NCBI GenBank assembly: GCA_017518295.1
Contig: JAFWVJ010000020.1
Coordinates: 131,320 to 195,319 of the forward strand
DNA length: 64,000 bases
Source: Clostridia bacterium
GTDB lineage: Bacteria > Bacillota > Clostridia > TANB77 > UBA1234
Direction of reading: 5' to 3'
Below are positions 19,685 to 63,038 of this stretch, in pieces. A program made the translations under genes and the position numbers. The notes beneath the pieces are model-generated. The model saw only the letters and a program-made list of their open reading frames with translations, did no database searches and had not been told where the DNA came from. Numbering within the stretch: the first letter of the stretch is position 1; each line of letters starts with the position of its first letter.

Positions 19685-19713
19685 TTTGCAAATTATGATA
19701 TTTCATGGTATAA
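19685..19713 (+). promoter_or_regulatory. sigma-A type promoter for the ncRNA (TTGCAA-17-TATAAT)
   Basis: TTGCAAattatgatatttcatggTATAAT read directly from the sequence. Confidence 0.55.
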
Positions 19714-19719
19714 TACGTA

Positions 19720-20330
19720 GCGGTGATGTGTTATCCTAGTTATTGCTAAGGGTTGCTAAGGTGGGGCTAAAAATCCACTTAAAAGAGCACAATCGATGAA
19801 GTTTCTGGGTAGATGCTTGCGACGCCCAGTCGTGGGTGCTATCTGGGAGTAAAGAGTTAAGGGCGATCCGTAATGGCATACGGGCGTTGACCCTTTTCTC
19901 ATGGAGACACGTATTCTTTCTAAGCTAATTACCTTAATTAAAACAGCAGAGAATACGCGAAAACCTGCGAGGCCTTAGTTTTAGGTAGACTTAAGGTACA
20001 CAGAGTAGCTTTCCTTGAGTGAAATTGGTGAATGTATTACTGAAACCAACTTTGCAAAAGAGGATAAACAACTATTTAGCAGTTTGAGGAAATCTTCTAG
20101 GACATTTGCATCAAAAGCAAGATATACTTGGGATTGAGGTGTGGACTAAGTGGTAATTCAGACTCTTATGTCGGTGACGACTAAGATACTTCTTTTAAAG
20201 GGGAACCACTAAGATGGCGATATCTTAGCAAGAAGTAGGGAAATCCTTCTGGACCTAAGCCATAAAATTAACTAAGTATATTATCACTATAATTTATTAT
20301 ATTGATTACAGCCAATATAAAAAATATTGG
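19720..20330 (+). ncRNA. ole: candidate OLE (ornate large extremophilic) RNA, ~600 nt; boundaries approximate
   Basis: ~600-nt ORF-free, GC-enriched, stem-rich region with its own promoter. It lies exactly in the conserved OLE position: nusB-xseA-xseB-(ispA slot)-OLE-oapA. The downstream gene has the OapA features. No covariance model was run. Confidence 0.5.
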
Positions 20331-36620: not shown

Positions 36621-39600
36621 ATGACAAATACTATGAAAAGAAGTATTATTTCGATTTTTGTTTTAGTTTTAGTTTTCTGCATGAGTGCAGTTGCTTTTGC
36701 TGATGACTATAACGGACAAGAAATATTCAACTTGACAGCTACTTACAATGGAAAAACATTAAAGAATGGTGAAACCATTAAAGTTTATTCCACATCACCT
36801 AGAACAGTTTCAATAGATACTAATCCAAAATATGTAGATAACACATTAGTTGTTGGCTATTGTTGGGATGGTGGCAATTGGAATGATACAACTGGTAAAA
36901 AATCAATTTCATTTACACTTCCAAATTTTGCTAATGGATCAACACATACTCTAGATATGGAAGGTTATATTGAACATAATAAAAACTTACCAGAAGGTGA
37001 CCCTGAAAGATATGTAGGAAATACAAACTTTGTAACAGTTTATTTTAAATTTGAAGAAACAACTCGTGAAATTAATTTAAAAGATGGAAGCAAAACAATT
37101 GCACATCAAGCAACAATTCAAAAACAACCTGGTGATACTCTTACTTTAGTTGGAACATCAAATATTGGAATTAATAAAATTCAATATATTTGGAATGGAA
37201 ATTCAAGTGATGTTAAAACAATCAATGGAGAATCAGGAACAATTACAGTTCCAAATATGGCAGAAGGTCAAAAGATTACTTTAGAAGCAGTTTGCCAATC
37301 AAAAGATAATAACTGGTCTTCTAGTAAAACATACTATATTCAAAGACCTGCAGCTAATGAAACAGTTACACTTTCACTTTCAGATACAGGTAGTAACGTA
37401 AAAGCTACTCCAACTGTAACTAATGGTACATTTGATCATTATGAATATCATTGGGATAGTGATGTAACCTCAACTCAAACAAGTAGTACATTTGGTTATC
37501 CAGTTGCAACTGGAAAACATATATTATATGTAAAAGCAGTTACTAAGAATGGTGTAAAATCTGCTGAAAAGAGTGTAACAGTAAATGTTGCTGAAGCAGA
37601 ATCATTAACATTATCTTTAAAAGATACAGGAAGCAATATTAAAGCAACTGCAACTGTAACTAATGGTACATTGGATCATTTCCAATATCATTGGGATAGT
37701 GATATTAGTTCAAATCAAACAAGTGATACATTTGGTTATCCAGTAGCAACTGGATCACATACATTATATGTAAGAGCAGTTTCTAAGAAAGGAAATATGT
37801 CTCCAGAAAAGAGCATAACAGTTAATGTAGCTGCTCCAGAAACTGTAACAGTATCTTTACAAGATAAAGGTACATATGTAAAAGCAACACCAACAGTTCA
37901 AAATGGTACATTTGATCATTTTGAATATCATTGGGATAATGATGCTAGTTCAAATCAAACAAGCGATCAATTTGGATATCCAGTAGCAACTGGACAACAC
38001 ATTTTATATGTAAAAGCAGTTACTAAAAAAGGAACAAAATCTGCTGAGAAAAATATAACAATTAATGTTAAAGAAGAGGAAGTAACAGGAACAATTTCTG
38101 CTTCAGTTCCTTCAGGAGCATTAAGTGAAACACAAAGCAAACCAACTAGTGTTGAACCTGGAACAGAAATCACAGTTAAATTTAATCCAGAATCTAACTT
38201 TACTAAATTTGAATATAACTGGGATGATGGTGCATTCCAAAACTTACCTTCAAATAAAAAGATTTCAATTCCAAACTTTGAACCTGGTACAACACATAAA
38301 TTAACAATTAGAGGAACATTAAAGAATGGAAATATAGTAACAAAGATTTACTATATTACAATTCCAAAGAAAACATTAGAAGGACAAGTTGATGCAAAAT
38401 TAAACAATAAAACATTAACAAATGGATCAACAACTACTGTTGAAGGAAATGAATCTATTGATTTAGTTGGAACACCAACAGCAAATATTAAATCTTTAGT
38501 TTATTCTTGGGACAATGGTTCTGAACAAACAGTAAATGGTGCTTCAGCAAAAACTAATGTAGTTGCAAAACAAGGTGAGACACATACTTTAAAAGTTAAA
38601 GCAATTTTAACAGATAATACAGAAACATCATCTAAATCATATAAATTTGTTTTAAGCGGTGAGATGGAAGATGGTGGAGAATTAGATATAGATCCATGGA
38701 TGAGAGAAAATGATGATGCAGAAGGATTATTAGTTGCTCTTAGAAATAGATCTGATGAAGATAAAGCAAATAAAAACTTCTATATGATTGATGAAGAAGT
38801 TATTTACTTAGTAGATTATATGAATGCTGGAAAAGATATTAGTGAAGAAGTTAAACTTGTATTAAATATCCCACTTTCATTCAAGATTGTAAGCAGCGAT
38901 GGTGGTGTAGTTGATAATGATAAGAAAACAATTACTTGGACATTCCCAAATGGAGTTAAAGAAAAAGCTGCAGATACAAAAGAAGTAAGACTTAAATATA
39001 CAGCTTTATCTAAGAAGACATTAAAGAGTGAAATGATTTATCCACAAGCAGTAATTTATAAGAAAACAAAAGCAATGGATTATTCAGCAGTTATTAATTG
39101 CATCTATTTAGATGAAGATACAAAATTTAGTGATACTCATGAACCATATATGTATGGTGACCTTGAAGCTCCAACATTTAGACCTGATGAAGGTATATCT
39201 AGAGCTGAGGGTGCTATGGTTCTATTAAGAATCTTTGGTGAAAACTATACAAATGTTAAGACAATTACTACAAAATATAGTGATATTGAAGATACATACT
39301 ATGTAGCTAGACAAGCTATTACAAAAGCAACTCAATTAAATATCATGTCAGGATATCCAGATGGTTCATTTAAACCAAATGGTAAGATGACAAGAGCTGA
39401 GTTCATGAGAGTTATTGCAAGCTATGTTGCAGAAAGTGCAGATAAGAAAGGCTTAGAACTAAAAGATACAGATGCACTTGTAATTTATAAGAATACAAGT
39501 AATAAGAACCATTGGTCAAATCCATATGTAACATTACTTGCTAGATTAAATATGACAAATGCATCAAGCAAGGAGAAAGATCTAAGAGTAGATGAAACAA

Positions 39601-39791
39601 TAACAAGAGCTGAGGTAGCTCAACTATGTAATTTCTATCTATTCAGAGCTCCTGCCAAAGTAACTTCTAGCACAAATATGCAATTTACAGATGTTAATAG
39701 AAGCCATAAATTAATTGGAGATATTGTTGAAGCAACGAGAGAATCTCATTCATATATGGTAACATCTGATGGCAAAGAAGTAATTAAATAA
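36621..39791 (+). CDS. S-layer-type surface protein A: signal peptide, N-terminal conserved domain, three tandem ~80-aa Ig-like repeats plus further beta repeats, conserved C-terminal module with three SLH domains
   Basis: Signal peptide MKRSIISIFVLVLVFCMSAVAFA. The repeat …HWDSDxxSxQTSxTFGYPVATGxHxLYVxAVxKxG… occurs 3 times. C-terminal FRPDEGISRAEGAMVLLRIFG…, FKPNGKMTRAEFMRVIASYV… and ITRAEVAQLCNFYLFRA are SLH motifs. Strong RBS GAGGAGG. Confidence 0.8.
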   Translation: MTNTMKRSIISIFVLVLVFCMSAVAFADDYNGQEIFNLTATYNGKTLKNGETIKVYSTSPRTVSIDTNPKYVDNTLVVGYCWDGGNWNDTTGKKSISFTLPNFANGSTHTLDMEGYIEHNKNLPEGDPERYVGNTNFVTVYFKFEETTREINLKDGSKTIAHQATIQKQPGDTLTLVGTSNIGINKIQYIWNGNSSDVKTINGESGTITVPNMAEGQKITLEAVCQSKDNNWSSSKTYYIQRPAANETVTLSLSDTGSNVKATPTVTNGTFDHYEYHWDSDVTSTQTSSTFGYPVATGKHILYVKAVTKNGVKSAEKSVTVNVAEAESLTLSLKDTGSNIKATATVTNGTLDHFQYHWDSDISSNQTSDTFGYPVATGSHTLYVRAVSKKGNMSPEKSITVNVAAPETVTVSLQDKGTYVKATPTVQNGTFDHFEYHWDNDASSNQTSDQFGYPVATGQHILYVKAVTKKGTKSAEKNITINVKEEEVTGTISASVPSGALSETQSKPTSVEPGTEITVKFNPESNFTKFEYNWDDGAFQNLPSNKKISIPNFEPGTTHKLTIRGTLKNGNIVTKIYYITIPKKTLEGQVDAKLNNKTLTNGSTTTVEGNESIDLVGTPTANIKSLVYSWDNGSEQTVNGASAKTNVVAKQGETHTLKVKAILTDNTETSSKSYKFVLSGEMEDGGELDIDPWMRENDDAEGLLVALRNRSDEDKANKNFYMIDEEVIYLVDYMNAGKDISEEVKLVLNIPLSFKIVSSDGGVVDNDKKTITWTFPNGVKEKAADTKEVRLKYTALSKKTLKSEMIYPQAVIYKKTKAMDYSAVINCIYLDEDTKFSDTHEPYMYGDLEAPTFRPDEGISRAEGAMVLLRIFGENYTNVKTITTKYSDIEDTYYVARQAITKATQLNIMSGYPDGSFKPNGKMTRAEFMRVIASYVAESADKKGLELKDTDALVIYKNTSNKNHWSNPYVTLLARLNMTNASSKEKDLRVDETITRAEVAQLCNFYLFRAPAKVTSSTNMQFTDVNRSHKLIGDIVEATRESHSYMVTSDGKEVIK
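37360..38080 (+). repeat. three tandem ~240-bp coding repeats inside SLH gene A
   Basis: Protein repeats ETVTLSLSDTGSNVKATPTVTNGTFDHYEYHWDSD…, ESLTLSLKDTGSNIKATATVTNGTLDHFQYHWDSD… and ETVTVSLQDKGTYVKATPTVQNGTFDHFEYHWDND…. Confidence 0.8.
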
Positions 39792-39798
39792 CATACTA

Positions 39799-39828
39799 AA
39801 AAAGAGGTAGGAAACTACCTCTTTTTTG
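39799..39828 (+). terminator. rho-independent terminator
   Basis: AAAGAGGTAGGAAACTACCTCTTT hairpin plus a T-run. Confidence 0.75.
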
Positions 39829-39894
39829 CGCCTTTTTTGGCCCAAAAACCTATAAATAGAGAAGATCTAAAAAACATAAAAAAAATTTAAATAA

Positions 39895-39937
39895 GTTTAC
39901 ATAAAGTATTGATTTTTTATTGGGAATATATTATAAT
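39895..39937 (+). promoter_or_regulatory. promoter of SLH gene B: GTTTACATAAAG motif immediately upstream of TTGATT-17-TATAAT
   Basis: Motif at 39895-39906, -35 at 39909-39914 and -10 at 39932-39937, all read directly from the sequence. Confidence 0.55.
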
Positions 39938-39994
39938 ATTAACAGTCGGGTGCGAAAAAGCACAAAAGTTAAAACTATAGGAGGTTTTTAAAAT

Positions 39995-41926
39995 ATGAGT
40001 AACGTAAGAAGAAAGATTTCATTAGGTTTAGTTATGTTACTAGTTGTTATGGCTATTTCCGTAGCTTTTGCAGATGATTATAACGGAAAAGAAATATTCA
40101 ACTTAACAGCTACATTAGGTGGCAAAACATTAAAGAATGGTGAAACAGTTGAAATATCACCTGATTCATCTAGAACAATTAATATTACAACAAATCCAAA
40201 GTATGTAGATAATACTTTAGTAATAGGATATGCTTGGGATGGTGGAGAATGGAATGATGCAACAGGAAGTGCTACAAGATCATTTACTATTCCAAATTTT
40301 GCTACTGGTACTCAACACCATGTAGATATGGAAGCATATATTGAACACAATAAAGATTTACCAGAAGGTAGTGCAGACAGATATGTTGGTAACTCAAACT
40401 TTGTAACAGTTTATTTTAACTTTGTTGATAAGGTTGCTACTAACGTAGAAGTAAATGTTAAAGATGGAAACACAACTCTTGCTCACAAATCAACAGTAGA
40501 AAAAGAACCAGGAACAACTTTAACAGCTACTGGTTCAACAAATGTTGGAACAATTGATAAATTCCAATACATTTGGGATGGAAACAAAAATGATGTTAAG
40601 ACAATTAATGGTTCTACAGGAACAATTACAATTCCAAACGGAGAAGCAGGAAAAACAAAAACACTTGAAATTACTGCACATTCAACAGATGGAGTTTGGT
40701 CTCCAAGCAAAACATATTATATTAAACTTAAATCAACAAAACCAATTGATGATGAATTAATCATTGAAGATTGGATGAAAGAAAACAAAGATATCGAAGC
40801 ATTAGCAGTTTCTTTAAGAAACGATAGCGATGAATATGAAAAATCTAACAAAAATATGTACGCTTTAAAAGAAGAAGTTGTTTACTATGTAGATTACAAA
40901 AATGGTGGAAAAGATATTAATAACGAAGTTAAACTAGTTCTTGAATTACCACTTGATTTTGATGTAGTAGATGCTTTTGGCGGAACAGTAGACAAAGAAA
41001 AGAAGACAATTACATGGACATGGCCTGATGGATTAGAAAAAGGACAATCAGGAACAAAAGTAGTTAAGATTAAATATGTTGCACTTAGCAAATCAAGCAA
41101 AAAATCTGAAACTATTTACCCAGTAGCAAAGATTTATGTTTCAAACTCTAAGACACCAAAGGATACATCAGCTGTTATCAATTTAATTTTCAAAGATGAA
41201 GATACAGAAATTGCTGATGAACATTATCCATACATGATTGGTGACTTAATGGAAGATAAATCTATTACACCAACATTTAGACCAGATGAAAGCATTTCTA
41301 GAGCAGAAGGTGCTTTAGTTCTTGCAAGAATTTTTGGTATTAACTATACAGGTACACAAGTTGCTGGAAATGAATTTTCAGATCTTAAAGATACTTATTT
41401 ATCAGCACAACAAGCTATCGTTGCAAGTTCTAAGATGGGCTTAATTTCTGGTTTCCCAGATGGCACATATAGACCAAACGATAAGATGACAAAAGCTCAA
41501 TTTATGAGAATTATAGCAAGCTATGTAGAAGTTAGAGCTGAAGAAGATGATGTTAAAGGATTAGAAATCAAAGAAGATGATATGGCAATTAAAGTTTATA
41601 AAAATCCTACAAATGTTTATATGACAGGTTCTACATCTACAACAAATCATTGGGCAATTCCATATGTTACATTACTAGTAAGAATTAATATGACTCCAGT
41701 TACAAGCTCACACAAAGATTTAGGATTAGATGAAGAAATTACAAGAGCAGAAGTTGCTCAATTAGTAAACTTCTTCTTATTTAGAGCACCAGCTGAAGAA
41801 GGAAAAGTTCAATTTAGTGATGTTTCAAAGAATCACAAATTATATAGAGATATACTTGAAGCTACAATGCCTGCTCATTCATACACATTAACACATGAAG
41901 GCACAGAAGTTAGAGTAGATGACTAA
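39995..41926 (+). CDS. S-layer-type surface protein B (paralog of A; shorter repeat cassette; three C-terminal SLH domains)
   Basis: N-terminal ~130 aa and C-terminal ~330 aa are highly similar to gene A (FADDYNG[QK]EIFNLTAT…KTLKNGET… / …FRPDE[GS]ISRAEGA[ML]VL[LA]RIFG…). Signal peptide present. Confidence 0.8.
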   Translation: MSNVRRKISLGLVMLLVVMAISVAFADDYNGKEIFNLTATLGGKTLKNGETVEISPDSSRTINITTNPKYVDNTLVIGYAWDGGEWNDATGSATRSFTIPNFATGTQHHVDMEAYIEHNKDLPEGSADRYVGNSNFVTVYFNFVDKVATNVEVNVKDGNTTLAHKSTVEKEPGTTLTATGSTNVGTIDKFQYIWDGNKNDVKTINGSTGTITIPNGEAGKTKTLEITAHSTDGVWSPSKTYYIKLKSTKPIDDELIIEDWMKENKDIEALAVSLRNDSDEYEKSNKNMYALKEEVVYYVDYKNGGKDINNEVKLVLELPLDFDVVDAFGGTVDKEKKTITWTWPDGLEKGQSGTKVVKIKYVALSKSSKKSETIYPVAKIYVSNSKTPKDTSAVINLIFKDEDTEIADEHYPYMIGDLMEDKSITPTFRPDESISRAEGALVLARIFGINYTGTQVAGNEFSDLKDTYLSAQQAIVASSKMGLISGFPDGTYRPNDKMTKAQFMRIIASYVEVRAEEDDVKGLEIKEDDMAIKVYKNPTNVYMTGSTSTTNHWAIPYVTLLVRINMTPVTSSHKDLGLDEEITRAEVAQLVNFFLFRAPAEEGKVQFSDVSKNHKLYRDILEATMPAHSYTLTHEGTEVRVDD

Positions 41927-41943
41927 TTTATAGTATAGAATAA

Positions 41944-41978
41944 TAAAACCCCGTATGCTTTTGCATACGGGGTTTTTG
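41944..41978. terminator. bidirectional rho-independent terminator
   Basis: AAAACCCCGTATGCTTTTGCATACGGGGTTTT lying between convergent genes. Confidence 0.8.
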
Positions 41979-41985
41979 TTGGGAT

Positions 41986-42936
41986 TCAACGATGACCAGT
42001 GCCGCTACCAGTGTTTCCGGTAGGAGAACGATGGCCGGTACCACTACCAGACTCAGTGTTCTGAGTGGTGGGAGTACGATGACCAGTGCCGCTACCAGAT
42101 TCGCTGGGCTGAGAGGTCCAACCAGTGAAGTTGTCTCCACCAGTCTGAGCATTTCCGTTGTCGGAGCCGCTCGTGGACTCGCTACCAGTGGGGGTACGAT
42201 GACCAGTGCCGGAACCCGTTTCCTCAGTGTGAGTGGGTTCACGATGACCGGTACCAGTACCAGTTTCTTCTTCAGGAGTAGTTTCTTCAACTACTTCTTC
42301 AGTAGGAACTTTTTCCTCAGGCTGGGTAGCCGTGGTCGGAGTATGGAGCACGGTCTGCTCCAGAAGTTCGAGACCATACACGCGCTCACCATCTTTGATG
42401 ATGAAGCTAACGCGAACGGCCCGGCCGCCAAGATTGCCTTCCAGGACAGTAGTCGTATGCTTGCGAGCATTACGATTCCAAATCCTGTGGCTCATCTGAC
42501 CTTCATAGCCTTTCTTGGTAGAAGCAAACAAAGTTGCATCGAAGCAGCTCTGAGCGTCCCCACCAAAAGCTTCGTAAGCTTCCTGGTCGAACCAGTAAGC
42601 ATTCACGAAGTTGTAAGACTTGAGATTACCAGCAGTGGTGAACCGGATTTTCCGATCCAATCTGTTGGTACCGAGGCAGTTAGCCGTGGCAGTAGAAGCT
42701 TTGACATAGGAAGACTTTTGCTTCATGTCAGCAGCTTCACTACGCTCGAGTTCAACCTTTTCAGTGAAGAATCCACCAAAGATTCTATCTTCACGGTTCT
42801 TTTTGGCAGCAAGTACTTCGATAGAAGTGTTTTCACACTTAATGCAGAAGTCTTCCGCCAGTGCGGTCGTAAAGCAAGCGAGAATCAGAGAAACCAGAAC
42901 CATGGAGATCTTGATGGTGTTACGAGCAGTATTCAT
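41986..42936 (-). CDS. GC-rich secreted repeat protein 1: signal peptide, ~200-aa N-domain, Thr/Pro/Glu linker, C-terminal (G)TGHR and GGDNFTGW repeats
   Basis: Start ATG at 42936 (MNTARNTIKISMVLVSLILACFTTALA) with AAAGGA RBS. The upstream in-frame extension in the ORF track lacks an RBS. Codon usage is far GC-richer than the surrounding genes. Confidence 0.65.
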   Translation of the reverse strand: MNTARNTIKISMVLVSLILACFTTALAEDFCIKCENTSIEVLAAKKNREDRIFGGFFTEKVELERSEAADMKQKSSYVKASTATANCLGTNRLDRKIRFTTAGNLKSYNFVNAYWFDQEAYEAFGGDAQSCFDATLFASTKKGYEGQMSHRIWNRNARKHTTTVLEGNLGGRAVRVSFIIKDGERVYGLELLEQTVLHTPTTATQPEEKVPTEEVVEETTPEEETGTGTGHREPTHTEETGSGTGHRTPTGSESTSGSDNGNAQTGGDNFTGWTSQPSESGSGTGHRTPTTQNTESGSGTGHRSPTGNTGSGTGHR

Positions 42937-43114
42937 TTTGACGATCCTTTCTTTTTTTGGCTCTTGGCCATAATTTTTTTCCCAACAAATGAGTGTATAT
43001 ACAATTGTATTCCACACAAAATAAGCTAAATGCAAATGCAAAATAGCTAGAAAATGTGGCTGTTGATTGTTTTCCACGTTTACAAATGTTGGTACTAAAC
43101 AATATTATATCACA

Positions 43115-43128
43115 AATTTACATAAAAG
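43115..43128. promoter_or_regulatory. AAATTTACATAAAAG motif; on the minus strand it reads TTTTATGTAAATTTGTGATATAAT, i.e. motif at -35 with an extended -10
   Basis: Directly upstream (minus strand) of GC-rich gene 1. Confidence 0.55.
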
Positions 43129-43151
43129 TCACTAAAATAGCCCAATTAAAG

Positions 43152-43190
43152 GCAAAAATAAGAGGCTTTGCACAATTGTGCAAAGCCTCA
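43152..43190 (-). terminator. rho-independent terminator of GC-rich gene 2
   Basis: GAGGCTTTGCACAATTGTGCAAAGCCTC hairpin with a T-run on the minus strand. Confidence 0.75.
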
Positions 43191-43211
43191 TGGAACTTCC
43201 TATAGATTAGA

Positions 43212-44396
43212 TTATGAACCCCAACCAGTGAAGTTATCTCCACCGGTCTGTCCGTTTCCGTTGTCCTGACCAGAAGTTTCAGGCGTGTTCTGGGGAGCGG
43301 CTTCTTCAGTAGAATGTCCACCGCGATGACCAGTTCCTTCGCCAGAGGCTTCAGGAGTGTTCTGCGGTGCAGCGGTCTCCTGAGTGGTAGGCCGATGACC
43401 AGTTCCTTCGCCAGAGGGTTCGGGAGTCTGCTGCGGAGCAGCAGTTTCCTGGGTGGTAGGCCGATGGCCAGTTCCAGTACCAGGATCAGTCGGTTCCGGA
43501 GCCCGGGTGGGCTGAGGAGTAGGCTGACTCGTGGGAACCGCAGTGGGTTCGGGAGTGGGCGCCTGAGTGGGCTGCGGGGTCGGTGCATTGGTCGGCTCAG
43601 CCGTAGGCACGGGCGTAGGAGCCTGTGTGGGCTGCGGCGTGGGGGCCGGCGTAGCAGTCGGTTCCGCAGTGGGTTCAGGAGTGGGTGTGGACGGAGGCCG
43701 ATGACCAGTTCCACCGGGGGTGGGGGTCGGAGTCGGCTCCTGGGTAGGAACGGGCGTCGGTTCCTGGGTAGGAACAGGCGTCGGTTCCGTTGTGGGTGCA
43801 GGGGTAGGTGCTACCGTGGGTTGGGGCGTGTTCTGCGGCTTGGAAGAACCACTGCCTTTTGTGCAGAGGGTCCACTCAAGATCCTGCCGAACATAAACGT
43901 TCCAGTACTGGTTGCTCTTTTTGCCCATCTGAAGCTTTACAACCGGCTTAAAAGTCGACTGATATTTCTCCAGATGAACAGAGGATGCATTGCGGTCAAT
44001 GGTCAGAATCCGTTCTACTACGACATCGCAGATATCCTGTTTTGTCAGAGAGGGAATCTGGTCCATTGGAATACCGGTCAGCTGTGAAAAAAGTTCCGCG
44101 TCAACGATTGAAGCATCAAGAATGTCAATCGTTGATTCCCAATCATGACCTAACTCAAGACCAACGTTCTTACCGGTAGAGCCGGTATAAAAACCATTGG
44201 CAGCATGTTTGGCCATGCTGGTCTGCTTTGTAACCTTGGTATTCTGAATTGTCCCGGTGAGGGGCGTACCAGCGACGACATCAAAGATGCCGCTTTTGCA
44301 TGCGGGAATCCGCATGGTTTCAGCCATCGCAGATGCGATGGAGAAAATAGAAACAATGATCCCAGTCAAGATAGCAATCCTCTTAGCCTTAGCCAC
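43212..44396 (-). CDS. GC-rich secreted repeat protein 2: signal peptide, N-domain, long PT-rich linker, (G)TGHR repeats, C-terminal [10 protein letters not shown]
   Basis: GTG start at 44396 ([25 protein letters not shown]) preceded by AAAGGAA. PT linker [23 protein letters not shown]…. TGHR occurs 5 times. Foreign codon usage. Confidence 0.65.
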
Positions 44397-44520
44397 TTTG
44401 TAATTCCTTTCTGGAGGCGTGTCGCATCTAGGCAACACTTGGTTATCATTAGACCCCCTACAATCATGGATAAAGAGAAAACCACCTGGTACCACATAAC
44501 CTATAAAAATCCCTTAAATG

Positions 44521-44613
44521 GGCATACCAATTGTTATTACCCAAATACGCGATCTTTAAACGCCGAAGCATAAAAAAGATCCACGAAAATGTGGAATAAC
44601 AATTGGTATACCC
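44521..44613 (-). promoter_or_regulatory. long inverted repeat (15-16-bp arms, ~55-nt loop) in the 5' leader of GC-rich gene 2
   Basis: cATACCAATTGTTATTa … gGAATAACAATTGGTATac. It lies between the candidate promoter motifs (44655-44690) and the start at 44396. Confidence 0.4.
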
Positions 44614-44654
44614 ACCATCGAGATTATTTAAGTTAGCATATTTATTATACAATA

Positions 44655-44690
44655 AATTTACATAAAATTCAATATATTTTACATAATTTT
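44655..44690. promoter_or_regulatory. two tandem motif copies AAATTTACATAAAATT / TTTTACATAATTTT in the divergent promoter region
   Basis: Exact instances in the 617-bp intergenic region between GC-rich gene 2 (-) and SLH gene C (+). Confidence 0.5.
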
Positions 44691-44882
44691 TGTTTATTTT
44701 TTACCTAATTTTTGCTTATATATAGCCAGTTTGACTTATAATAGGTTACTGTATTATTTAAACCAGATTTTGGAGAAAAAATAGAATAAAAAAGTAAAAA
44801 AATCACATCAAAATATTATAAGATTTTATAAAAAAATATGTTCAAAAAGTTGCTTTAAATTTATCCCAAAACTACGGATGAT

Positions 44883-44940
44883 AAAGTTACATAAAATTAT
44901 TACAAAAATATTACAAAAACTATTGCTTTTTTACATAATC
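44883..44940. promoter_or_regulatory. motif copies AAAGTTACATAAAATT and TTTTTTACATAATC upstream of SLH gene C
   Basis: Exact instances. Followed by TGATATTATGTG (extended -10-like). Confidence 0.5.
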
Positions 44941-45013
44941 CGTGATATTATGTGCAACGCACCCCTAGAAAAGGGGAAAACAGTAATAAGATAAGAAATT
45001 ATAGGAGGTTTTT

Positions 45014-47209
45014 TTGATTATGAGTAACTTAAAAGCAAAAGTTTCTTTATTCGTTGTGATGTTACTTATCGTAAGTGCTTTTTCAGTAGCATTTGCTGGT
45101 GACTATATTATGAACTTATCTGTATCATATAATGGTGAAACTCTACAAGATAGAGAATCAATCGAATTATATAATTCTGATAAAAATAGAACATTAACAA
45201 TCACAACAGACGCAAAGTACGTAGATGATTCTTTAACAATTTATTGGTCAAGAAGTGGTGGACCAGTATTTGAAAAGCTTTCTACAGGAAAGAAATCAGC
45301 TACATTCACAATTCCTGCTGACTTAACAGAAGGAAATGCAACACAATTCGTATTCGAAGCAGTTTCAAATGACTTCGGTAACAACTTCGTAGGTAATTCA
45401 AACGCAGTTCGTGTTTGGGTAAATTGTCCTAAGGAAGAAGACGTTAATGTAACAGCTAACTTAGAATACAATGGTAAAACAATTGAACACTTAGACACAA
45501 TTAGATGTGCTGAAGGCGACACACTTAGAATTGTTGGTAATTCAAACATTGGTGTTAAACTTGTTGCATACAAATGGGACAACGGTTCAATCGTTGAAAT
45601 TGATGGATCAAGTGCAAACATCAAAGTTCCAGCTTTAGGCGAAGGTAAAAAATTATCTATCGTAGCACAAGCTAAAGATGGTAAATGGTCAAATAGTAAA
45701 ACATTTACAGTTCTTCCAAAAGCTGAAGAAGATGAAACAACAATCGAAGCTTATTTAAGAAAAGATGGCGTTGTTGTTGAAAACAGAGCTACAATCGAAG
45801 TAGGTGAAGGAACAAAATTAGTTGTTTCTGGAACATCTAACAAAGGTGTTAAATTAGTATCATACAAATGGGGTAACGGAAACGTTGTTGAAATCAATGG
45901 TTCAAGTGCTACAATCCCAGTTCCAGCAGATTTAGGAGATGGATTAACACTTGGTATCACAGCTCAAGCTACTGATGGTAAATGGGCTAACAGCAAGACT
46001 TTCACAGTTAAAGCTGGATCTTCAGTAGAACCAATCGAACCAGAAGATGATGACGATGATGAATTAATCATTGAACCATGGATGAAAGAAAATGATGACT
46101 TAAATAAATTAGCAGTTTCTTTAAGAAGTGAACCATATGAAAACGAAGACAGAGCAAACAAAAACATTTATGCATTAAATGAAAAAGTTGTTTACTATGT
46201 TGATTACAAAAATGGTGGAAAGAAAACTGATAAAGAAGTTAAATTAGTTCTTGATTTACCTCTTGCTGCTACAGTTGTAAACAGCGATGGTGGTTCAGTA
46301 TCTAAGAAAGATGGAACAATCACTTGGACATTCAAGAATGGTTTAGATAAAGAAGAATCTGGAACAAAGACAGTAGTTGTTAAGTACACATCTTTAGGTA
46401 GTTCAAAAGCTACATTTAAGAGAATTACTCCAAAAGCTACAATTTTCCAAGATGGTAAAAAGAAAGATTTATCAGCAGTTATTAACCTAATCGTTAAAGA
46501 TTTCGATGTTGAAATTAAAGACGAACATGATCCATATATGTATGGTGATTTAGGTACTGGTACATTCCGTCCAGATGATACAATCACAAGAGCTGAAGGT
46601 GCTTTAGTTCTTACAAGAATTTTTGGTATCTCTACTTCTAACGATAACAATACATATGATTTCCCTGATTTAAATGAAACATATGTATCAGCTAGAAGAG
46701 CTATTAGAGCTGCTAGAGCATATGGTCTTATCGAAGGATTCCCAGATGGAAATTACTATCCAAATAAGACAATGACAAGAGCTGAATTCATGACAATCAT
46801 CGCTCGTCAATTAGAAGAAGAAGAGGGCGACGGATTCGAAGTTAAAGAAGCTGACGATCTAATTAAGATTTATAAAGATAAAACAAAAGTATACTATCTA
46901 GACAACAATGAAACATATGATGCTCATTGGGCTGCTGGATATGCTACATTACTTTGCAGATTAAACATGGCTCCTGTATCTGAAAAGAATACAAACTTAA
47001 GACTTGATCAACCTATTTCAAGAGCTGAAGTTGCTCAATTAGTAAACTTCTACTTATTAAGAGCTCCAGCTGAAGTAACAAAATCAACAAAGATTGGATT
47101 CCCAGATGTTAATAGAAACCATAAATTAATCGGTGATATCGTTGAAGCTACAAGAGCTTCTCACACATGGTCTCTAAATGAAGATGGAGAAGAAGTTGAA
47201 GAAGATTAA
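45014..47209 (+). CDS. S-layer-type surface protein C (paralog; three ~95-aa tandem Ig-like repeats; three C-terminal SLH domains)
   Basis: Signal peptide. Repeats …Y(K)WDNG(S)xVEIxGSSAxIxVPAxxGxGxxLxIxAQAxDGKWxNSKTFTV occur 3 times. C-terminal module and SLH motifs are shared with genes A and B. RBS AGGAGG. Confidence 0.8.
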   Translation: MIMSNLKAKVSLFVVMLLIVSAFSVAFAGDYIMNLSVSYNGETLQDRESIELYNSDKNRTLTITTDAKYVDDSLTIYWSRSGGPVFEKLSTGKKSATFTIPADLTEGNATQFVFEAVSNDFGNNFVGNSNAVRVWVNCPKEEDVNVTANLEYNGKTIEHLDTIRCAEGDTLRIVGNSNIGVKLVAYKWDNGSIVEIDGSSANIKVPALGEGKKLSIVAQAKDGKWSNSKTFTVLPKAEEDETTIEAYLRKDGVVVENRATIEVGEGTKLVVSGTSNKGVKLVSYKWGNGNVVEINGSSATIPVPADLGDGLTLGITAQATDGKWANSKTFTVKAGSSVEPIEPEDDDDDELIIEPWMKENDDLNKLAVSLRSEPYENEDRANKNIYALNEKVVYYVDYKNGGKKTDKEVKLVLDLPLAATVVNSDGGSVSKKDGTITWTFKNGLDKEESGTKTVVVKYTSLGSSKATFKRITPKATIFQDGKKKDLSAVINLIVKDFDVEIKDEHDPYMYGDLGTGTFRPDDTITRAEGALVLTRIFGISTSNDNNTYDFPDLNETYVSARRAIRAARAYGLIEGFPDGNYYPNKTMTRAEFMTIIARQLEEEEGDGFEVKEADDLIKIYKDKTKVYYLDNNETYDAHWAAGYATLLCRLNMAPVSEKNTNLRLDQPISRAEVAQLVNFYLLRAPAEVTKSTKIGFPDVNRNHKLIGDIVEATRASHTWSLNEDGEEVEED

Positions 47210-47243
47210 AATAATCAAATAAGATTATTCTATAGTTTTAATG

Positions 47244-47282
47244 CAAAAAGCTACAAGTATTTATACTTGTAGCTTTTTGTTT
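47244..47282 (+). terminator. rho-independent terminator
   Basis: AAAAGCTACAAGTATTTATACTTGTAGCTTTTT. Confidence 0.8.
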
Positions 47283-47294
47283 TGTAAAAAATCG

Positions 47295-47350
47295 TAATGG
47301 CGACCAGTGGTCGCCGATACAAAACCATACCGGCGAGCATTGCTCGCCAT
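47295..47350. repeat. two REP-like palindromic units
   Basis: gtaatggcgaccagtggtcgccgatac and ccggcgagcattgctcgccat. Confidence 0.75.
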
Positions 47351-47359
47351 TTTTAATGC

Positions 47360-47397
47360 AAAAAAAATCCCCACGGAGCAAAGTGCTCCATGGGGGT
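47360..47397 (-). terminator. rho-independent terminator of GC-rich gene 3
   Basis: CCCCACGGAGCAAAGTGCTCCATGGGGG with a T8 run on the minus strand. Confidence 0.8.
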
Positions 47398-47417
47398 CGG
47401 TCAGAAAGGTTAAAAGC

Positions 47418-49019
47418 TTACAGGGGATTGTCTCCATATCCACCGTCGCCATTATCAAGCGGATTCTGCTCATGCGGGATGTCTGCAACTTCTTCTACAG
47501 TTTTGTTTCCTTCGTCAGGAAGTGACTGAGGTGCAGCAGCCTGTGGTTGAGCTTGAGGTTCTGCTTGAGGCTGAGCCTGAGGTGCGGCTTTTGGAGCTGC
47601 AGCAGATTCCTGAGGTGAAGTTTCCGGAACAGCTTGGGGAGTGGCGGCCTTTGAAGTCTCGGGCTTGGCTTGCGGAGTTGCACTGCCACTAGACGATCCT
47701 AAGGGATTACCATTGCCACCGCTAGAGCTTGATCCAGAACTACTTTCGGAACTGCTACTGGACGAACCTAAGGGGTTTCCGCCGGTGTTTCCACCACTGC
47801 TTCCACTGGAACTCGAGCCACTTTCAGCACCGCCGTTGTTATTTCCAGCAAGCGGATTTCCGCCGTAACCACCATCGGTGTTGCTCGGCGGATCAACATG
47901 CAGGTCTTCAAGCGGGTTCGAACCATGACCACCATCATCGTTGCTTCCGGGCTTTTCGGCTTCAGGAGTTACCTTCGGAGTAGCAACAGGCTGAACATCC
48001 AAATCCTCGAGAGGATTGTCACCATAGCCACCATCGTCGTTATCACCAGGCCGTTCCGGTTCCGGCGTTACCACAGGTGTAGCTGTGGGTTTGTTAGTCG
48101 GCGTCGGAGTGGGGTCAGGCGTCACTACCGGTGTTGCAGTCGGCGTGGGTGTCGGCGTATTGGTAGGCGTCGGTGTCGGTGTCGGCGTATTGGTAGGCGT
48201 TGGGGTTGGCGTGGGTGTATTGGTGGGAGTCGGAGTCGGCGTGGGTGTCGGACCACCAGTCGGAGTCGGTGTAGGCGTCGGCGTAGGTCCACCAGTCGGC
48301 GTGGGCGTCGGCGTAGGTGTAGGTTCATCAGTCGGCGTCGGCGTATTCGTCGGACCAGGTGTCGGCGTCGGTGTTACTTCGGGGCCACAACCTGCTTTCC
48401 AGCAAAGCGTGAGCTCTTCAGTCTCCAGGTTATAGAAAACACCCAAGTAATCTTCAGGATTATCAGAGTGGAAATACTTGGCTACGAGTACATGCCTAGA
48501 AACATCATACTGCTGTACTTCGTGGCTTACGTATTCAGTACTATCCACAGTGATGAGCGTGTAATCAATGAGGGGGCGAGCCCACATAGTATCATACGCT
48601 CTGATGTAGTCCTGAATTTCAACAGGAAGTTGTGTAAAAGCTGTAGTTACCTCAATGTCTTTAAAAAGTACTGTTGACCGATAAAGATATACAACTTGGT
48701 TCACTCCGCCAGGATGAGGAATTGTTTTGGCGCCAGGAACGAAGTCGTATTCGGCATCTTGTACCAGGAATCCATACTTGAAACCGTGGATTGCCGGAGA
48801 AGAACCGATAAGGTCTGCAGATTCAACGAAAGTACCAGGGTCACCAGACTCTTTGTCGTAGGCGTAAACATAGCCATTGGAATTCACGTAGAGTTCTACG
48901 TACAAATCTTCCAGGGGGGGAAGAATGTCGTTACCCTGCGCTTCGGCAATAGCGGTGAATGCGAACAAACCACATACCGCTACCACCAAGGACAAAAAGA
49001 TGCCAAGAAACCTTTTCAT
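47418..49019 (-). CDS. GC-rich secreted repeat protein 3: signal peptide, ~190-aa N-domain, long PTPTPT linker, GG[YH]G[DSG]NPL repeats, Ser/Gly-rich and AQPQ low-complexity tail
   Basis: ATG at 49019 ([27 protein letters not shown]) with AAAGGAGG RBS. (TPTP)n linker of ~110 aa. DGGYGDNPL-type motif occurs 6 times. Ends …DGGYGDNPL. Foreign GC-rich codon usage. Confidence 0.65.
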
Positions 49020-49377
49020 TCTGGTATTCCTCCTTTGGTTTGTCGGTTTTTTTATTTTTTGCTTTAACCTTTTCTGAGTGGGAAAGTAATTACAATTACC
49101 CACTATAAAGTGGACAATGGATCTTGCCTTGACAAGACGCAAATCCACCTCGCCGTGGATTTGTAAAAAACTTCTCCACGCTCAATCTATTAAAGCATAG
49201 CAATTATACAATGTATTAACATAATTTTCAACACTTTTTTGAAAAAAATTAAACAATTTTTTCGCTTTTCCGTAAGGTTTTTTGGCATTTTTAAAATCAA
49301 CAAAAATTTACGTTTGAAATATAGTTGTAACACAATTGTAAAAAATGATAAAAAGGACATTTTTTTTGATTTTTAAG

Positions 49378-49408
49378 CTAAAAAAACTCCCTAAAATAGG
49401 GAGTTTTT
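49378..49408 (-). terminator. rho-independent terminator of the FtsH-like gene
   Basis: AACTCCCTAAAATAGGGAGTT with a T-run on the minus strand. Confidence 0.7.
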
Positions 49409-49483
49409 GAAATTATTATTCTTCATTTGAAGTATTGGGTTTTGCTTCTGATTTTTTAGAAACTTTTTTAACAGGTTTTTTAG

Positions 49484-50899
49484 TTACGTTTTTGGCTGGC
49501 TTTTTTTTTTGCCACGAGTAGAAGTAGTTTGCGGCTTTTTATCGCCTTCCAAAATAGCCATAACTTCTTCTTTGTAGAGAGTTTCTTTTTTGATAAGTTG
49601 TTCAGCAATAGCAATAAGTTTATCCTTATGCTCAAGCACAATTTCAGTTGCTTTAGATTCAAGTTCTATAAGCATCTCTTGAATTTTGCCATCTGCAATT
49701 GAATTAAGATACTCACTAGGAAGTACTTCTTCTTGCAAACAGATAGGTCCAAAAGTTCTATCCATGCCAAAATACTTAACATAGCTTTCGGCCAGAGTAG
49801 TGGCATTTGAAAGATCAGAAGATACACCAGATGTGTTTGTATTAAACATTATCTGTTCAGCAACCTTGCCGCCCAGGCAATGAATAATACGACCTTTAAT
49901 ATCTTCACGAGTATAAGAAAGTTTGTCTTCATCAGTTTCAGGATCAGTAAGACCCAAAGACTGAGGTCTAAATACAACTTCAACTTTACTTACTTTATAG
50001 TCAGTAGAACCATAGTAACCAGCAATAACGTGGCCTGCTTCATGGTAGGCAGTAAGACGCATTTCTTTTTCTGACATTTTGCGAATCTTATTACCAAAAG
50101 TCTCAGAATAAATCGTTGCATTAATGATTTCATAGGTGAGCTTCGGCTTGTTTTCGAGAAGACAAGAAATCCATGCCTTGTTCAAAATATCTGCAATATC
50201 GCCACCGCTGCAACCGATAAAATCACGAGCAACTTTATTAAAGTCCAAGTTTTCATCATAAGGAATATTTGCAATAAACTTTTTAATCAGCTTTTCACGA
50301 TCTTTCGGATCAGGAGAGTTGAAAGAAACTTTATTATTAAAGCCTTCAGCTCCAAAGAAAAATTGCGGATAAAAAGCAAACTGAGAAGCTGATGCAAAGA
50401 AGAAAGAACGCGGGAATGAATTCTTAATCTGACAAATCTTTGAAAGGAAAGAAGTCATCTTGCCTTCGTCAAGCATATTAGAATAATTGACATCTTTAAA
50501 AAGTACAACGCACTTATCAAACTGTGCAATAACACCTTTGAGTCCATTAACAATCTTAATTGAAAAATCCTGCAAAAGTTTTTCACTGTCAATAACGACA
50601 ATTGGAAGGTTCATTTCTTTGGCAAAAGAATAAACAGTAAGAGCCTTACCAATGCCGGAAACACCCAAAAGAAGGAAACTTGGATGATATGATCCGAGTC
50701 CTTTAATAGGCCGTTTTCTTTTTAAAAGTCTAACCATGTTTGAAAAATATTTAACAATATTAGTATTACCAATAATATCCTTAAAGAAGTTGTCATTATC
50801 TTGCGGTAGTAAAGTTTTGACTTGAATCTTTTCGACAACTTCTTCAACGCTATAAGTTTGCGTGCTCAGAAGTTCTTTAATCCGGGGAGTCTGTTTCAT
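49484..50899 (-). CDS. cytosolic FtsH-like protein: AAA+ module with degenerate Walker A/B plus M41 peptidase domain with intact HEAGH
   Basis: Start ATG 50899 (MKQTPRIKELL…) with GGAGGTG RBS. No TM segments. GVSGIGKA in place of GPPGTGKT. LFKDVN in place of IDEID. …TAYHEAGHVIAGYY… and …GCSGGDIADILNKAWI… are collinear with FtsH. Lys-rich C-terminus crosses a T10 homopolymer at 49501-49510. Confidence 0.7.
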   Translation of the reverse strand: MKQTPRIKELLSTQTYSVEEVVEKIQVKTLLPQDNDNFFKDIIGNTNIVKYFSNMVRLLKRKRPIKGLGSYHPSFLLLGVSGIGKALTVYSFAKEMNLPIVVIDSEKLLQDFSIKIVNGLKGVIAQFDKCVVLFKDVNYSNMLDEGKMTSFLSKICQIKNSFPRSFFFASASQFAFYPQFFFGAEGFNNKVSFNSPDPKDREKLIKKFIANIPYDENLDFNKVARDFIGCSGGDIADILNKAWISCLLENKPKLTYEIINATIYSETFGNKIRKMSEKEMRLTAYHEAGHVIAGYYGSTDYKVSKVEVVFRPQSLGLTDPETDEDKLSYTREDIKGRIIHCLGGKVAEQIMFNTNTSGVSSDLSNATTLAESYVKYFGMDRTFGPICLQEEVLPSEYLNSIADGKIQEMLIELESKATEIVLEHKDKLIAIAEQLIKKETLYKEEVMAILEGDKKPQTTSTRGKKKSQPKT

Positions 50900-51038
50900 A
50901 GTACACCTCCATTTTAAAAAAATATGGATTTCCACGGCGTGATTATATAACGGTGTATTAATCAATGTCAATCGGTTTTGGGCTATTTTAGAAATCTAAA
51001 AAAATGTCAATAATTGTTACAAAAATGAAACAAAAATG

Positions 51039-62963: not shown

Positions 62964-63038
62964 TGGTGACCCCTACGGGAATCGAACCCATGATTCGACC
63001 TTGAGAGGGTCGCGTCTTAACCGCTTGACCAAGGGGCC
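62964..63038 (-). tRNA. tRNA-Glu (anticodon CUC), CCA encoded
   Basis: Reverse complement GGCCCCTTGGTCAAGCGGTTAAGACGCGACCCTCTCAAGGTCGAATCATGGGTTCGATTCCCGTAGGGGTCACCA folds as a cloverleaf. Close to Bacillus tRNA-Glu. Anticodon loop CUCUCAA. Confidence 0.85.

Follow-up and report, generated by a model that had tools for sequence, protein, structure and literature searches.

A locus on the core chromosome of an uncultured rumen Clostridia bacterium raises the question of how three secreted proteins, encoded with the codons of a moderately GC-rich organism, come to be interleaved with the surface-protein genes of an AT-rich one, and what becomes of these proteins after export. The window, by which is meant the whole stretch of 64,000 nucleotides that was analysed (GenBank assembly GCA_017518295.1, contig JAFWVJ010000020.1, positions 131,320 to 195,319), carries between polC on one side and rpoB on the other a cluster at 36.6-51.0 kb. 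Here three minus-strand genes (genes 1, 2 and 3) alternate with three plus-strand genes for S-layer homology (SLH) domain proteins (SLH1 to SLH3; Table 1). The reading that is favoured, tentatively and with a probability of about 0.4, is that genes 1-3 came by lateral transfer into a hypervariable S-layer locus and evolve fast, their products being secreted accessory proteins that dock at the surface through their tails. Taken alone, the descriptive part of this reading, namely the reality of the genes, the secretion signals, the protein anatomy, the rarity, the foreign codons, the pattern of synteny and divergence and the motif in common with a phage, is very probable, while retention at the surface, a docking function of the motifs and acquisition by lateral transfer are what we infer from it. 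An earlier interpretation, made from the letters of the window (the sequence-only reading), had proposed a foreign cell-surface module functionally paired with the SLH genes. The genes proved to be real, their domains and motifs undescribed and their codons foreign, and the pairing was the part that was not supported.

It is clear that the three genes are real and under purifying selection. The three minus-strand open reading frames (ORFs) that had been proposed are confirmed in the ORF list, and the exact proteins of genes 1 and 3 are indexed in 38 and 29 blocks, respectively, of the metagenome collection, with the same neighbours in the 24 longest-contig blocks for each. The ratio of non-synonymous to synonymous substitution rates (dN/dS) versus relatives is 0.10-0.21 for all three genes (0.19-0.21 for gene 1). 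The GC content changes in sharp steps at the gene ends, and many related contigs are short and break near the GC-rich genes, as would be expected if the GC-rich segments were contamination or chimeric joins, the danger that had been raised with the original proposal. This explanation is virtually impossible, given eleven independent contigs that run colinear through 12 kb (39001-51000) with 99.7-100% identity. These contigs come from different samples and from MEGAHIT, SPAdes, Logan and other assemblies, and cover all the junctions. The recurrence of the exact proteins with unchanged neighbours and the presence of the same alternation in diverged relatives also stand against it.

The start of gene 2 is the GTG at 44396, for which gene callers have also picked 44495 or a later ATG; the length variants of 334, 394 and 427 amino acids found in other contigs are different start calls on identical DNA. 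As had been proposed, each protein begins with a signal peptide, seen in a hydropathy scan as a single hydrophobic stretch at the N-terminus, together with a basic n-region and a site of the AxA type. The first ten residues have a net charge of +2 to +3, the hydrophobic core spans roughly residues 5-32, and cleavage is predicted at ALA/E, AMA/E and AEA/Q. The three are predicted to be Sec-dependent secreted proteins.

None of the anchors that were looked for is present. The hydropathy scan, run in 19-residue windows, gives no second hydrophobic segment in any of the three proteins, and the last 25 residues are hydrophilic (mean hydropathy -1.25 to -1.62). There is no LPXTG, no C-terminal transmembrane segment and no match to an NCBIfam sorting signal, so that these are not sortase substrates by sequence. 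The SLH domain (PF00395) is not matched by genes 1-3 at E<=0.1, whereas the three plus-strand neighbours match it at 1e-11 to 1e-17. The choline-binding CW_binding_1, dockerin, CWB2, LysM, SH3b, WxL and ChW families have no Pfam match in the proteins or in their tails. More generally, Pfam, NCBIfam, PHROG and PADLOC give no match for the three proteins or the tails. With the full proteins, Pfam at E<=0.1 returns only sub-threshold hits to PT and DUF6562, the PT repeat (PF04886) scoring 15.4 bits (E=0.014) in gene 2, below its gathering threshold of 26.2 bits. For the isolated tails no Pfam family appears even at E<=10, in agreement with the earlier claim that the motifs lie outside the known repeat families.

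A Pro/Thr-rich spacer with short Gly-rich motifs does follow each N-domain, as had been described. The tails are low in hydrophobic residues (3-8%) and dominated by Pro, Thr, Gly and Ser, with Pro and Thr making up 35-47% of the gene 2 and gene 3 tails; this composition suggests extended, low-complexity segments. Pro/Thr-rich linkers of clostridial extracellular proteins are often O-glycosylated and extended. The tails of genes 1 and 2 are homologous (blastp E=9e-17). Five copies of the GTGHR motif had been counted in each of them, which is correct for gene 1 but not for gene 2, which has four. Likewise, the GGDNFTGW-type motif described as terminal in both is so in gene 2 and internal in gene 1 (residues 266-273). 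The NPL motifs of gene 3 were confirmed: GG[YH]GxNPL occurs four times, NPL cores seven times in all, and the protein ends in DGGYGDNPL.

Comparison with homologues indicates that the motifs are what is retained in these tails. In the homologue of gene 1, P0002, the spacers have diverged while GTGHR (seven copies), one further short motif and the terminal GTGHR are retained. In the gene-3 family, the block starting ATPxVTPEPE[RK], which contains PG.N.DGG.G.NPL...DGGYG.NPL, and the terminal motif are the best-conserved parts, despite N-domains that are only 30-70% identical. At the gene-2 position, the tails differ wholly by lineage. GTGHR is found in the window, and the gene-2 head of P0014 is followed by VITEVPIQTATPAP repeats and ends in GDGGNGPAF. 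The protein of L034 (2962-4317, plus strand; 9511-10212, plus strand, in L021; GC3 0.55-0.61, where GC3 is the GC content at third codon positions) carries DPEPVWEDP and DWDQDFNL repeats and ends in SDGWDDGFNF. Read from sequence, tails have been swapped between lineages on orthologous heads. A common theme runs through them, a low-complexity spacer with short motifs of Asp/Asn/Gly plus an aromatic residue, one of which is found at the C-terminus or close to it.

Three phage proteins, P0010-12, likewise end in the two-motif GGxGxNPL module. Their N-domain is that of an SU10-type head-to-tail adaptor, they contain a Listeria-Bacteroides repeat, and they are encoded among capsid and tail genes. 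The DNA of the phage adaptor and that of the host gene are only ~73% identical over 84 nt, which indicates selection on the peptide in both settings and not a recent transfer. The phage contig has a GC content of ~0.40, and its host is therefore probably not the AT-rich organism of the window. The eleven matches to the motif in JGI metagenomes are nearly all gene-3 homologues or one phage protein. There was no real match for the gene-3 motif in IMG/VR. GenBank phages gave no match to gene 3 and, of the phage adaptor, matched only the Flg_new-like middle. Nothing relevant was found for the motif strings in the literature, and the peptide patterns gave no relative in species-representative genomes. 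The exact string DGGYGDNPL has six matches in 185,579 such genomes, taken as chance since about two are expected; the one that was checked, in L015, is out of frame.

It is mainly because the motif recurs on a virion adaptor that a docking model is favoured. According to this model, the proteins would stay at the cell surface after export without a classical anchor. The Pro/Thr spacer would act as a stalk, and the repeated motifs would be multivalent, low-affinity docking peptides for a surface component (an S-layer protein or a wall polymer), possibly with Ca2+. The N-domain would be the displayed, fast-evolving functional head. Alternatively, the motifs could be sites of processing or modification, such as proteolysis after the Arg of GTGHR, metal binding by His/Arg, glycosylation, or Gln/Lys cross-linking by the protein encoded at 9032-10645. 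The motifs are regularly spaced and strictly conserved in spacers that otherwise evolve freely, GTGHR forms the very end of gene 1, the tails are rich in Gln and a protein combining a Transglut_core with SLH is encoded in the same window, all of which would fit such a role. Nonetheless, no maturase, protease or glycosyltransferase gene adjoins the three genes, the precursors are large with folded heads, unlike known multi-core peptide precursors, and the phage adaptor has the same module at its exposed end, which makes this alternative very unlikely. The protein at 9032-10645 (plus strand) has a transglutaminase core and two SLH domains; a role for it in cross-linking the Gln-rich tails is conceivable but purely speculative.

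The N-domains in front of these tails are rare. For gene 1, a single homologue was found among 5.8e9 proteins, P0002, with 66% identity overall and 82% in the mature N-domain. Gene 2 has the homologue P0014 (70-74% in the N-domain) and the genes at the gene-2 position of L021, L034 and L028 (23-33%). A profile of the gene-3 N-domain (A3, 183 positions) finds nine true members in 1.84e9 cluster representatives, P0003, which represents the cluster of gene 3, at 1e-80 and eight others at 3e-11 to 7e-70. Further members are found in JGI metagenomes (L025, L026 and L031). The NCBI copy of gene 3, MBR3281457.1, is named 'hypothetical protein'. The AlphaFold2 (AF2) model of gene 3 has a mean local confidence (pLDDT) of 71 and a global score (pTM) of 0.73, and no fold match was obtained with it in a structure search; the gene 1 model (pLDDT 34) is unusable. 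The gene-3 N-domain is thus an undescribed, very rare family without a fold match. A kinship with NHL repeats (P0019, P0020) was discarded as a short chance likeness to the first beta-hairpin.

The three N-domains had been regarded as mutually unrelated. For gene 1, no relationship to either of the others is supported (profile-profile E=0.05-0.8), but the other two align over their last ~55 residues. In profile-profile comparison, the gene-2 and gene-3 families match over the last 55-60 residues with E=3-6e-4 and a probability of 28-38%, and have in common the pattern E-x-Y-[DNQ]..S..H ... Y-[WL]-x-V-[FY] ... L-C. On this evidence the gene-2 and gene-3 N-domains are probably distantly related.

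The order of the cluster is SLH1, SLH2 (both plus), gene 1, gene 2 (both minus), SLH3 (plus), gene 3, the M41 gene (both minus) and rpoB (plus). Upstream lie genes for PriA, Fmt, XseA, PrmC, WhiA and PolC, and downstream those for RpoB and RpoC. The locus was compared with contigs of related lineages (L013, L021, L022, L026, L028, L034, L036 and L037), and in all of them the alternation of AT-rich SLH genes with GC-rich genes on the opposite strand is kept. Gene content varies, L022 being without gene 1. Identity to the window at the amino acid level is uneven: RpoB is 98% identical in L021, SLH3 is 72-84% and M41 62-73% identical across lineages. In L021 alone, SLH3 is 84%, gene 3 is 69% and the gene at the gene-2 position 28-33% identical. 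The synonymous divergence (dS) from L021 is 0.35 for RpoB, 0.59 for SLH3, 1.32 for M41 and 1.4 for gene 3. Gene 1 has a dS of ~1.0, versus 0.40 for the adjacent end of SLH2.

The M41 gene, which has an intermediate GC3 (0.28) and a high dS, stands directly upstream of every gene-3 homologue of this clade (L021, L026 and L036), and keeps this place where the identity of gene 3 has dropped to ~36%. Its AAA domain is degenerate (GVSGIGKA, no DE Walker B), and a PADLOC-type defence scan gives only a weak IetA-type AAA similarity. It is an uncertain member of the module.

Between the window and the near-identical strain L006, there are 17 single-nucleotide polymorphisms (SNPs) in the coding regions of SLH1, SLH2, gene 1 and gene 2, with 14, two, one and none in each, respectively. 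The 14 in SLH1 cluster in the end that encodes the SLH domains (38471-39656), which suggests gene conversion among the SLH paralogues. SLH1 also has three tandem 240-nt repeats (37350-38081, plus strand), 77-78% identical, encoding repeated modules of ~80 amino acids, and many segments of 60-85% identity are common to the three SLH genes. Local hypermutation, either of the type of diversity-generating retroelements (DGR) or by head-on mutagenesis, is unsupported: the SNPs are not enriched in the GC-rich genes and no reverse transcriptase is encoded in the window. Acceleration by head-on orientation is debated and would be a minor contributor (PMC5585990 versus 10.1101/2021.08.23.457454).

These comparisons do not support the proposed pairing between the GC-rich genes and their SLH neighbours, given that the synteny is found in only one clade of rumen Clostridia (L021, L026, L028, L034 and L036) and, being confined to related lineages, is expected by descent. 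Convergence with an SLH gene, which had been stated for all three, applies to genes 1 and 3 only; gene 2, upstream of gene 1 and in tandem with it, diverges from SLH3. A terminator region in common with the SLH gene was borne out for gene 1 and SLH2, which use one hairpin, and not for gene 3 and SLH3, which have separate ones.

The codon usage of the three genes is foreign, as had been proposed. Their GC3 is 0.47, 0.51 and 0.43 (genes 1, 2 and 3), versus 0.155 in 19 background genes, a departure of the kind by which horizontally acquired islands are recognised. Given that the N-domains alone reach 0.45-0.52, the amino acid bias of the linkers does not explain it. Among 13,400 background codons, CGG occurs once, CTC once, CCC four times and CCG eight times; in the 1,246 codons of genes 1-3 they occur 12, 14, 44 and 51 times, respectively, CGG being enriched about 130-fold. 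Conversely, the fraction of Pro codons that are CCA falls from 0.67 in the background to 0.03 in genes 1-3, that of TTA among Leu codons from 0.54 to 0.05 and that of AGA among Arg codons from 0.82 to 0.09. The GC-rich stretch stops at each coding-region boundary, promoters and leaders being AT-rich, so the coding regions alone carry a codon usage typical of an organism of ~45-50% GC. In related lineages the same contrast is found, with GC3 of 0.16-0.18 for the SLH genes on one strand and 0.41-0.61 for the secreted genes on the other. Orientation is ruled out as the source of the GC richness, since the minus-strand S30AE gene has a GC3 of 0.108. The sole tRNA gene of the window, at 62964-63038 (minus strand), is for tRNA-Glu(CUC), which reads GAG, a codon used for just 12% of the Glu residues of the background genes.

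Each of the three genes has its own sigma-70-like promoter, its own terminator and a long leader (about 165, 245 and 180 nt for genes 1, 2 and 3). The common promoter motif that had been described holds for genes 1 and 2, where TTATGTAAA lies in the spacer between -35 and -10, whereas gene 3 has only the variant ATTATGTTAAT. At SLH2 and SLH3 the motif is on the opposite strand, and SLH1 has one copy on each strand. The element (complement TTTACATAA) has eight copies in the window versus 3.0 expected, seven of which are in intergenic regions of the cluster. It is also found upstream of homologues in L013, L021, L034 and L037, the promoters having been read by eye. In related lineages, the promoters (TTATGTAAA element plus TGnTATAAT) and the leaders are conserved while the coding regions are only 27-70% identical. 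The gene 1 promoter and leader are kept in L013, and in L034 the core of this leader is kept with a coding region only 27% identical, the promoter there being read from sequence as TTTTATGTAAATTTGTGGTATAAT. Of the gene 2 promoter, the -10 region is kept in L021, L034 and L028; sequence covering its upstream half comes from L028 alone.

Two of the leaders carry possible regulatory elements. In that of gene 2, the TCCACATTTTCGTGGA hairpin follows the predicted transcription start by ~50 nt and stands ~185 nt ahead of the start codon; it is a possible attenuator. The leader of gene 3 is structured: compensatory changes are seen at eleven base pairs, where shuffled alignments give 5.2+/-1.4 and slid controls 1-6, and four CCAC/GTGG segments allow alternative pairings. 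A covariance model of this leader (R1) matches solely upstream of gene-3 homologues, by which a single leader RNA common to all six genes is ruled out. Rfam (4,227 models at the gathering threshold) finds only OLE RNA and a tRNA in the whole window, and at E<=1 over 42900-49400 it gives no match at the gene 3 leader. The gene 3 leader is a candidate for a new cis-regulatory RNA.

Table 1. Coordinates of the features of the SLH locus in the window and of the phage adaptor gene
Feature	Position	Strand	Description
SLH1	36621..39791	+	AT-rich SLH-domain surface protein, 1056 aa; Pfam SLH E=1e-17; GC3 0.123
SLH2	39995..41926	+	643 aa; convergent with gene 1; Pfam SLH E=1e-11; GC3 0.148
SLH2/gene 1 terminator	41945..41976		bidirectional hairpin AAAACCCCGTATGC-AAAA-GCATACGGGGTTTT, common to both
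Gene 1	41986..42936	-	316 aa; predicted signal peptide, ~190 aa N-domain with conserved N-terminal CxxC, Thr/Gly/Ser/Glu-rich tail
Gene 1 tail	41986..42291	-	5x GxGTGHR; GGDNFTGW motif internal; C-terminus ends in GTGHR
Gene 1 promoter	43104..43132	-	GTGACT-17-TATAAT, TG-extended; TTATGTAAA in spacer; followed by ~165 nt leader
Gene 2 terminator	43162..43189	-	
Gene 2	43212..44396	-	394 aa, GTG start; predicted signal peptide, ~160 aa N-domain, long Pro/Thr tail
Gene 2 tail	43212..43781	-	4x GTGHR; GGDNFTGW motif at C-terminus
Hairpin in gene 2 leader	44580..44595	-	terminator-like TCCACATTTTCGTGGA, then T run; kept in L021, L034
Gene 2 promoter	44644..44672	-	TTGAAT-17-TATAAT; TTATGTAAA in spacer; followed by ~245 nt leader
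SLH3	45014..47209	+	731 aa; divergent from gene 2, convergent with gene 3; Pfam SLH E=4.5e-15; GC3 0.186
SLH3 hairpin	47332-47348	+	own terminator hairpin of SLH3
Gene 3 terminator	47369..47395	-	
Gene 3	47418..49019	-	533 aa; predicted signal peptide, ~210 aa N-domain, PT linker, motif block, Ser/Gly- and AQP-rich stretches, C-terminal motif
Gene 3 C-terminal motif	47421..47474	-	terminal or next to terminal in P0004, P0005, P0009, L025, L031
Gene 3 motif block	47844..48068	-	kept across the family despite 30-70% N-domain identity
Gene 3 leader RNA	49076..49180	-	conserved, structured; ATCCAC-GGCGAG-GTGGA invariant in seven aligned lineages
Gene 3 promoter	49203..49231	-	TTGAAA-17-TATAAT; kept in L021, L026, L036, L037
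M41 gene	49484..50971	-	soluble FtsH-like protein; M41 protease domain with intact HEAGH; no transmembrane segment
TTATGTAAA/TTTACATAA sites	36412, 36505, 39896, 43117, 44657, 44678, 44930		
Phage adaptor gene	L023 10001-11020		on 49.8 kb phage contig; also L027, L030; among capsid and tail genes

The import of coding cassettes, together with recombination, accounts most simply for the foreign codon usage and for the raised dS. The cassettes would have been acquired laterally from moderate-GC rumen Firmicutes into a recombination-prone surface locus, and would then have diverged fast, or undergone allele replacement, behind conserved AT-rich promoters and leaders. P0006, a member of the gene-3 family found elsewhere, is a protein rich in Lys, Asn and Ile, as AT-rich genomes encode, judged from its protein sequence only; this suggests that members of the family can take on the composition of their host and that the copies at this locus are later arrivals.

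Several observations weigh against the favoured reading, some of them touching on the surface role and others on the import. As to the former, the motifs match no known binding repeat, and P0008, a distant member of the gene-3 family, is encoded between HSP20 and cobW with no SLH gene nearby. Furthermore, the tail types differ while SLH3 stays 83-85% identical (in L021 and L034; there is no SLH3 for the VITEVPIQTATPAP lineage), which argues against tight co-evolution. The three proteins could accordingly be soluble and released to the medium, as binders of plant polymers or of cells or as phage decoys, with no link to the S-layer, in a region that tolerates insertions. The lack of an anchor domain or motif of any known type and the independence of gene content and tails from the SLH genes are in line with this, as is P0008. 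The persistence of gene order and promoters in L021, L026, L028, L034 and L036, and also in L013 and L022, is not, and a motif in common with a virion protein is easier to understand if it touches a component of the cell surface. Soluble release is, for these reasons, regarded as rather unlikely.

As to the import, the GC3 of 0.41-0.61 is held in at least five lineages, and the GC richness is restricted to the coding regions. A polarised count on the window branch gives 2-6 changes from G/C to A/T (S>W) versus 12-14 in the opposite sense (W>S), a rough count since the sites are saturated. Together with the persistence of GC3, this count fits the maintenance of GC-rich codons in situ better than a recent import under amelioration. 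The identity of gene 3 (69, 54 and 36%) also drops in the same order as that of M41 (73, 64 and 62%). No donor was found, the search having consisted of two short peptide patterns and the exact DGGYGDNPL, with no relative in 185,579 species genomes. There is no integrase or transposase among the cluster ORFs, no mobility gene or insertion scar was seen, and no flanking direct repeats are reported.

A live rival to import is therefore that the GC-rich rare codons are maintained in situ by selection on translation or on the mRNA, for instance a throttling through CGG, CCG, CCC, CTC and CTG combined with the conserved leaders. The stop of the GC richness at the coding boundaries, behind AT-rich and conserved promoters and leaders, would be natural under such a regime, as would the GC3 values of orthologous positions beside SLH genes of 0.16-0.18, the parallel divergence of gene 3 and its neighbour M41, the lack of an excess of GC-to-AT changes, the use of CGG for the Arg in three of the four GTGHR motifs of gene 2, and the covariation in the structured leader of gene 3. 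However, no such regime is known in Firmicutes, and P0006 appears AT-adapted, by its amino acid composition alone, in which case GC richness would not be intrinsic to the family. The polarised changes are few and fall at saturated sites, and a dS two to four times that of the flanking genes also fits older imported alleles. Maintenance in situ is for the present improbable. A broader proposal joins two parts. The first is that the host clade has a stable 'codon dialect' for hypervariable surface genes, with GC3 of 0.4-0.6 versus 0.15 in coding regions only, with codons such as CGG that are almost absent elsewhere in the host, and stable across speciation behind conserved AT-rich promoters and structured leaders, the undescribed leader RNA of gene 3 among them; this would reflect gene-specific control of composition or translation and not the fading trace of a transfer. 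The second is that GGxGxNPL and the related C-terminal Asp/Gly/aromatic motifs would be a new short linear docking signal of Firmicute cell surfaces, copied by a podophage adaptor for attachment at the same site. That both parts hold together is quite doubtful.

The favoured reading, that of imported accessory proteins with docking tails, can be set beside several known systems. The nearest functional parallel comes from Lactobacillus acidophilus, where S-layer-associated proteins (SLAPs) are held non-covalently in the S-layer (PMC3836491, PMC7090030). Like many SLAPs, the proteins studied here are secreted, lack a classical covalent anchor, are uncharacterised, vary between strains and are encoded near S-layer genes. 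Unlike them, they are known from their genes alone, whereas SLAPs are defined by co-extraction with LiCl; there is no sequence kinship, the host here anchors through SLH domains, and neither the motifs nor the foreign codons have a SLAP counterpart. In Clostridioides difficile, S-layer proteins are phage receptors and the S-layer cassette occurs in variable types (PMC10100898, PMC8809339, PMC8881574). The slpA cassette is likewise a surface locus of the core chromosome with alleles far more divergent than its flanks, where surface variation is linked to phages, and the recurrence of the motif on a virion adaptor fits this known use of the S-layer as phage receptor (PMC10100898). The variable genes in C. 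difficile are, however, the S-layer genes themselves, anchored by CWB2 and of host-like composition, while here variation is greatest in GC-rich genes for proteins without an anchor, which lie on the other strand and alternate with the SLH genes.

The PT linkers (PF04886) of clostridial cellulosomal proteins resemble the tails in their long (PT)n or PTPxP spacers between globular and terminal interaction modules, but the terminal 'module' here consists of motifs of 8-20 residues and not of a folded dockerin or carbohydrate-binding module (CBM). GGYGDNPLE resembles a single nonapeptide of the RTX repeats (GGxGxDxUx; HemolysinCabind), and its Asp/Asn/Gly-rich context suggests, by analogy, cation binding. 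In contrast to RTX repeats, the motifs are isolated, 20-35 residues apart or irregular, with no 9-residue period. Since they are not in tandem, no beta-roll can form, and PF00353 gives no match at E<=10. The host is moreover a Firmicute and the proteins have a Sec signal, which is not type I secretion. Islands of horizontal transfer show the same sharp local departure in GC and codons. They differ in that there are here three islands of one coding region each, with host-like conserved promoters and without integrase, transposase, tRNA or repeat boundaries, and in that lineages which have diverged retain the pattern.

Most rumen Clostridia have not been cultured, and little is known of their envelopes. 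What is new at this locus is one or two domain families without a fold match and with fewer than a dozen known relatives, and short linear motifs found in no database, one of them common to secreted host proteins and a phage virion protein. If docking is true, it would amount to a display of proteins on an SLH-type surface without an anchor, by a handle that phages exploit. With its codon pattern, the locus also offers a natural setting, free of complications, in which to ask if foreign codons in bacteria are bound to fade once transferred or can be maintained. If the genes are merely recent imports in a recombination hot spot, they are an ordinary, if well-documented, example of the plasticity of surface loci. 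Two oddities stand out at the locus, the motif common to host and phage and the stable codon islands of single genes.

Outside the cluster, the window encodes an alpha-2-macroglobulin-like protein of 1,691 amino acids (1293-6368, plus strand), with A2M, MG2 and bait-region domains and a Big_5 domain. The OLE (ornate large extremophilic) RNA at 19707-20303 (plus strand) is full-length and scores 392 bits (E=9e-112).

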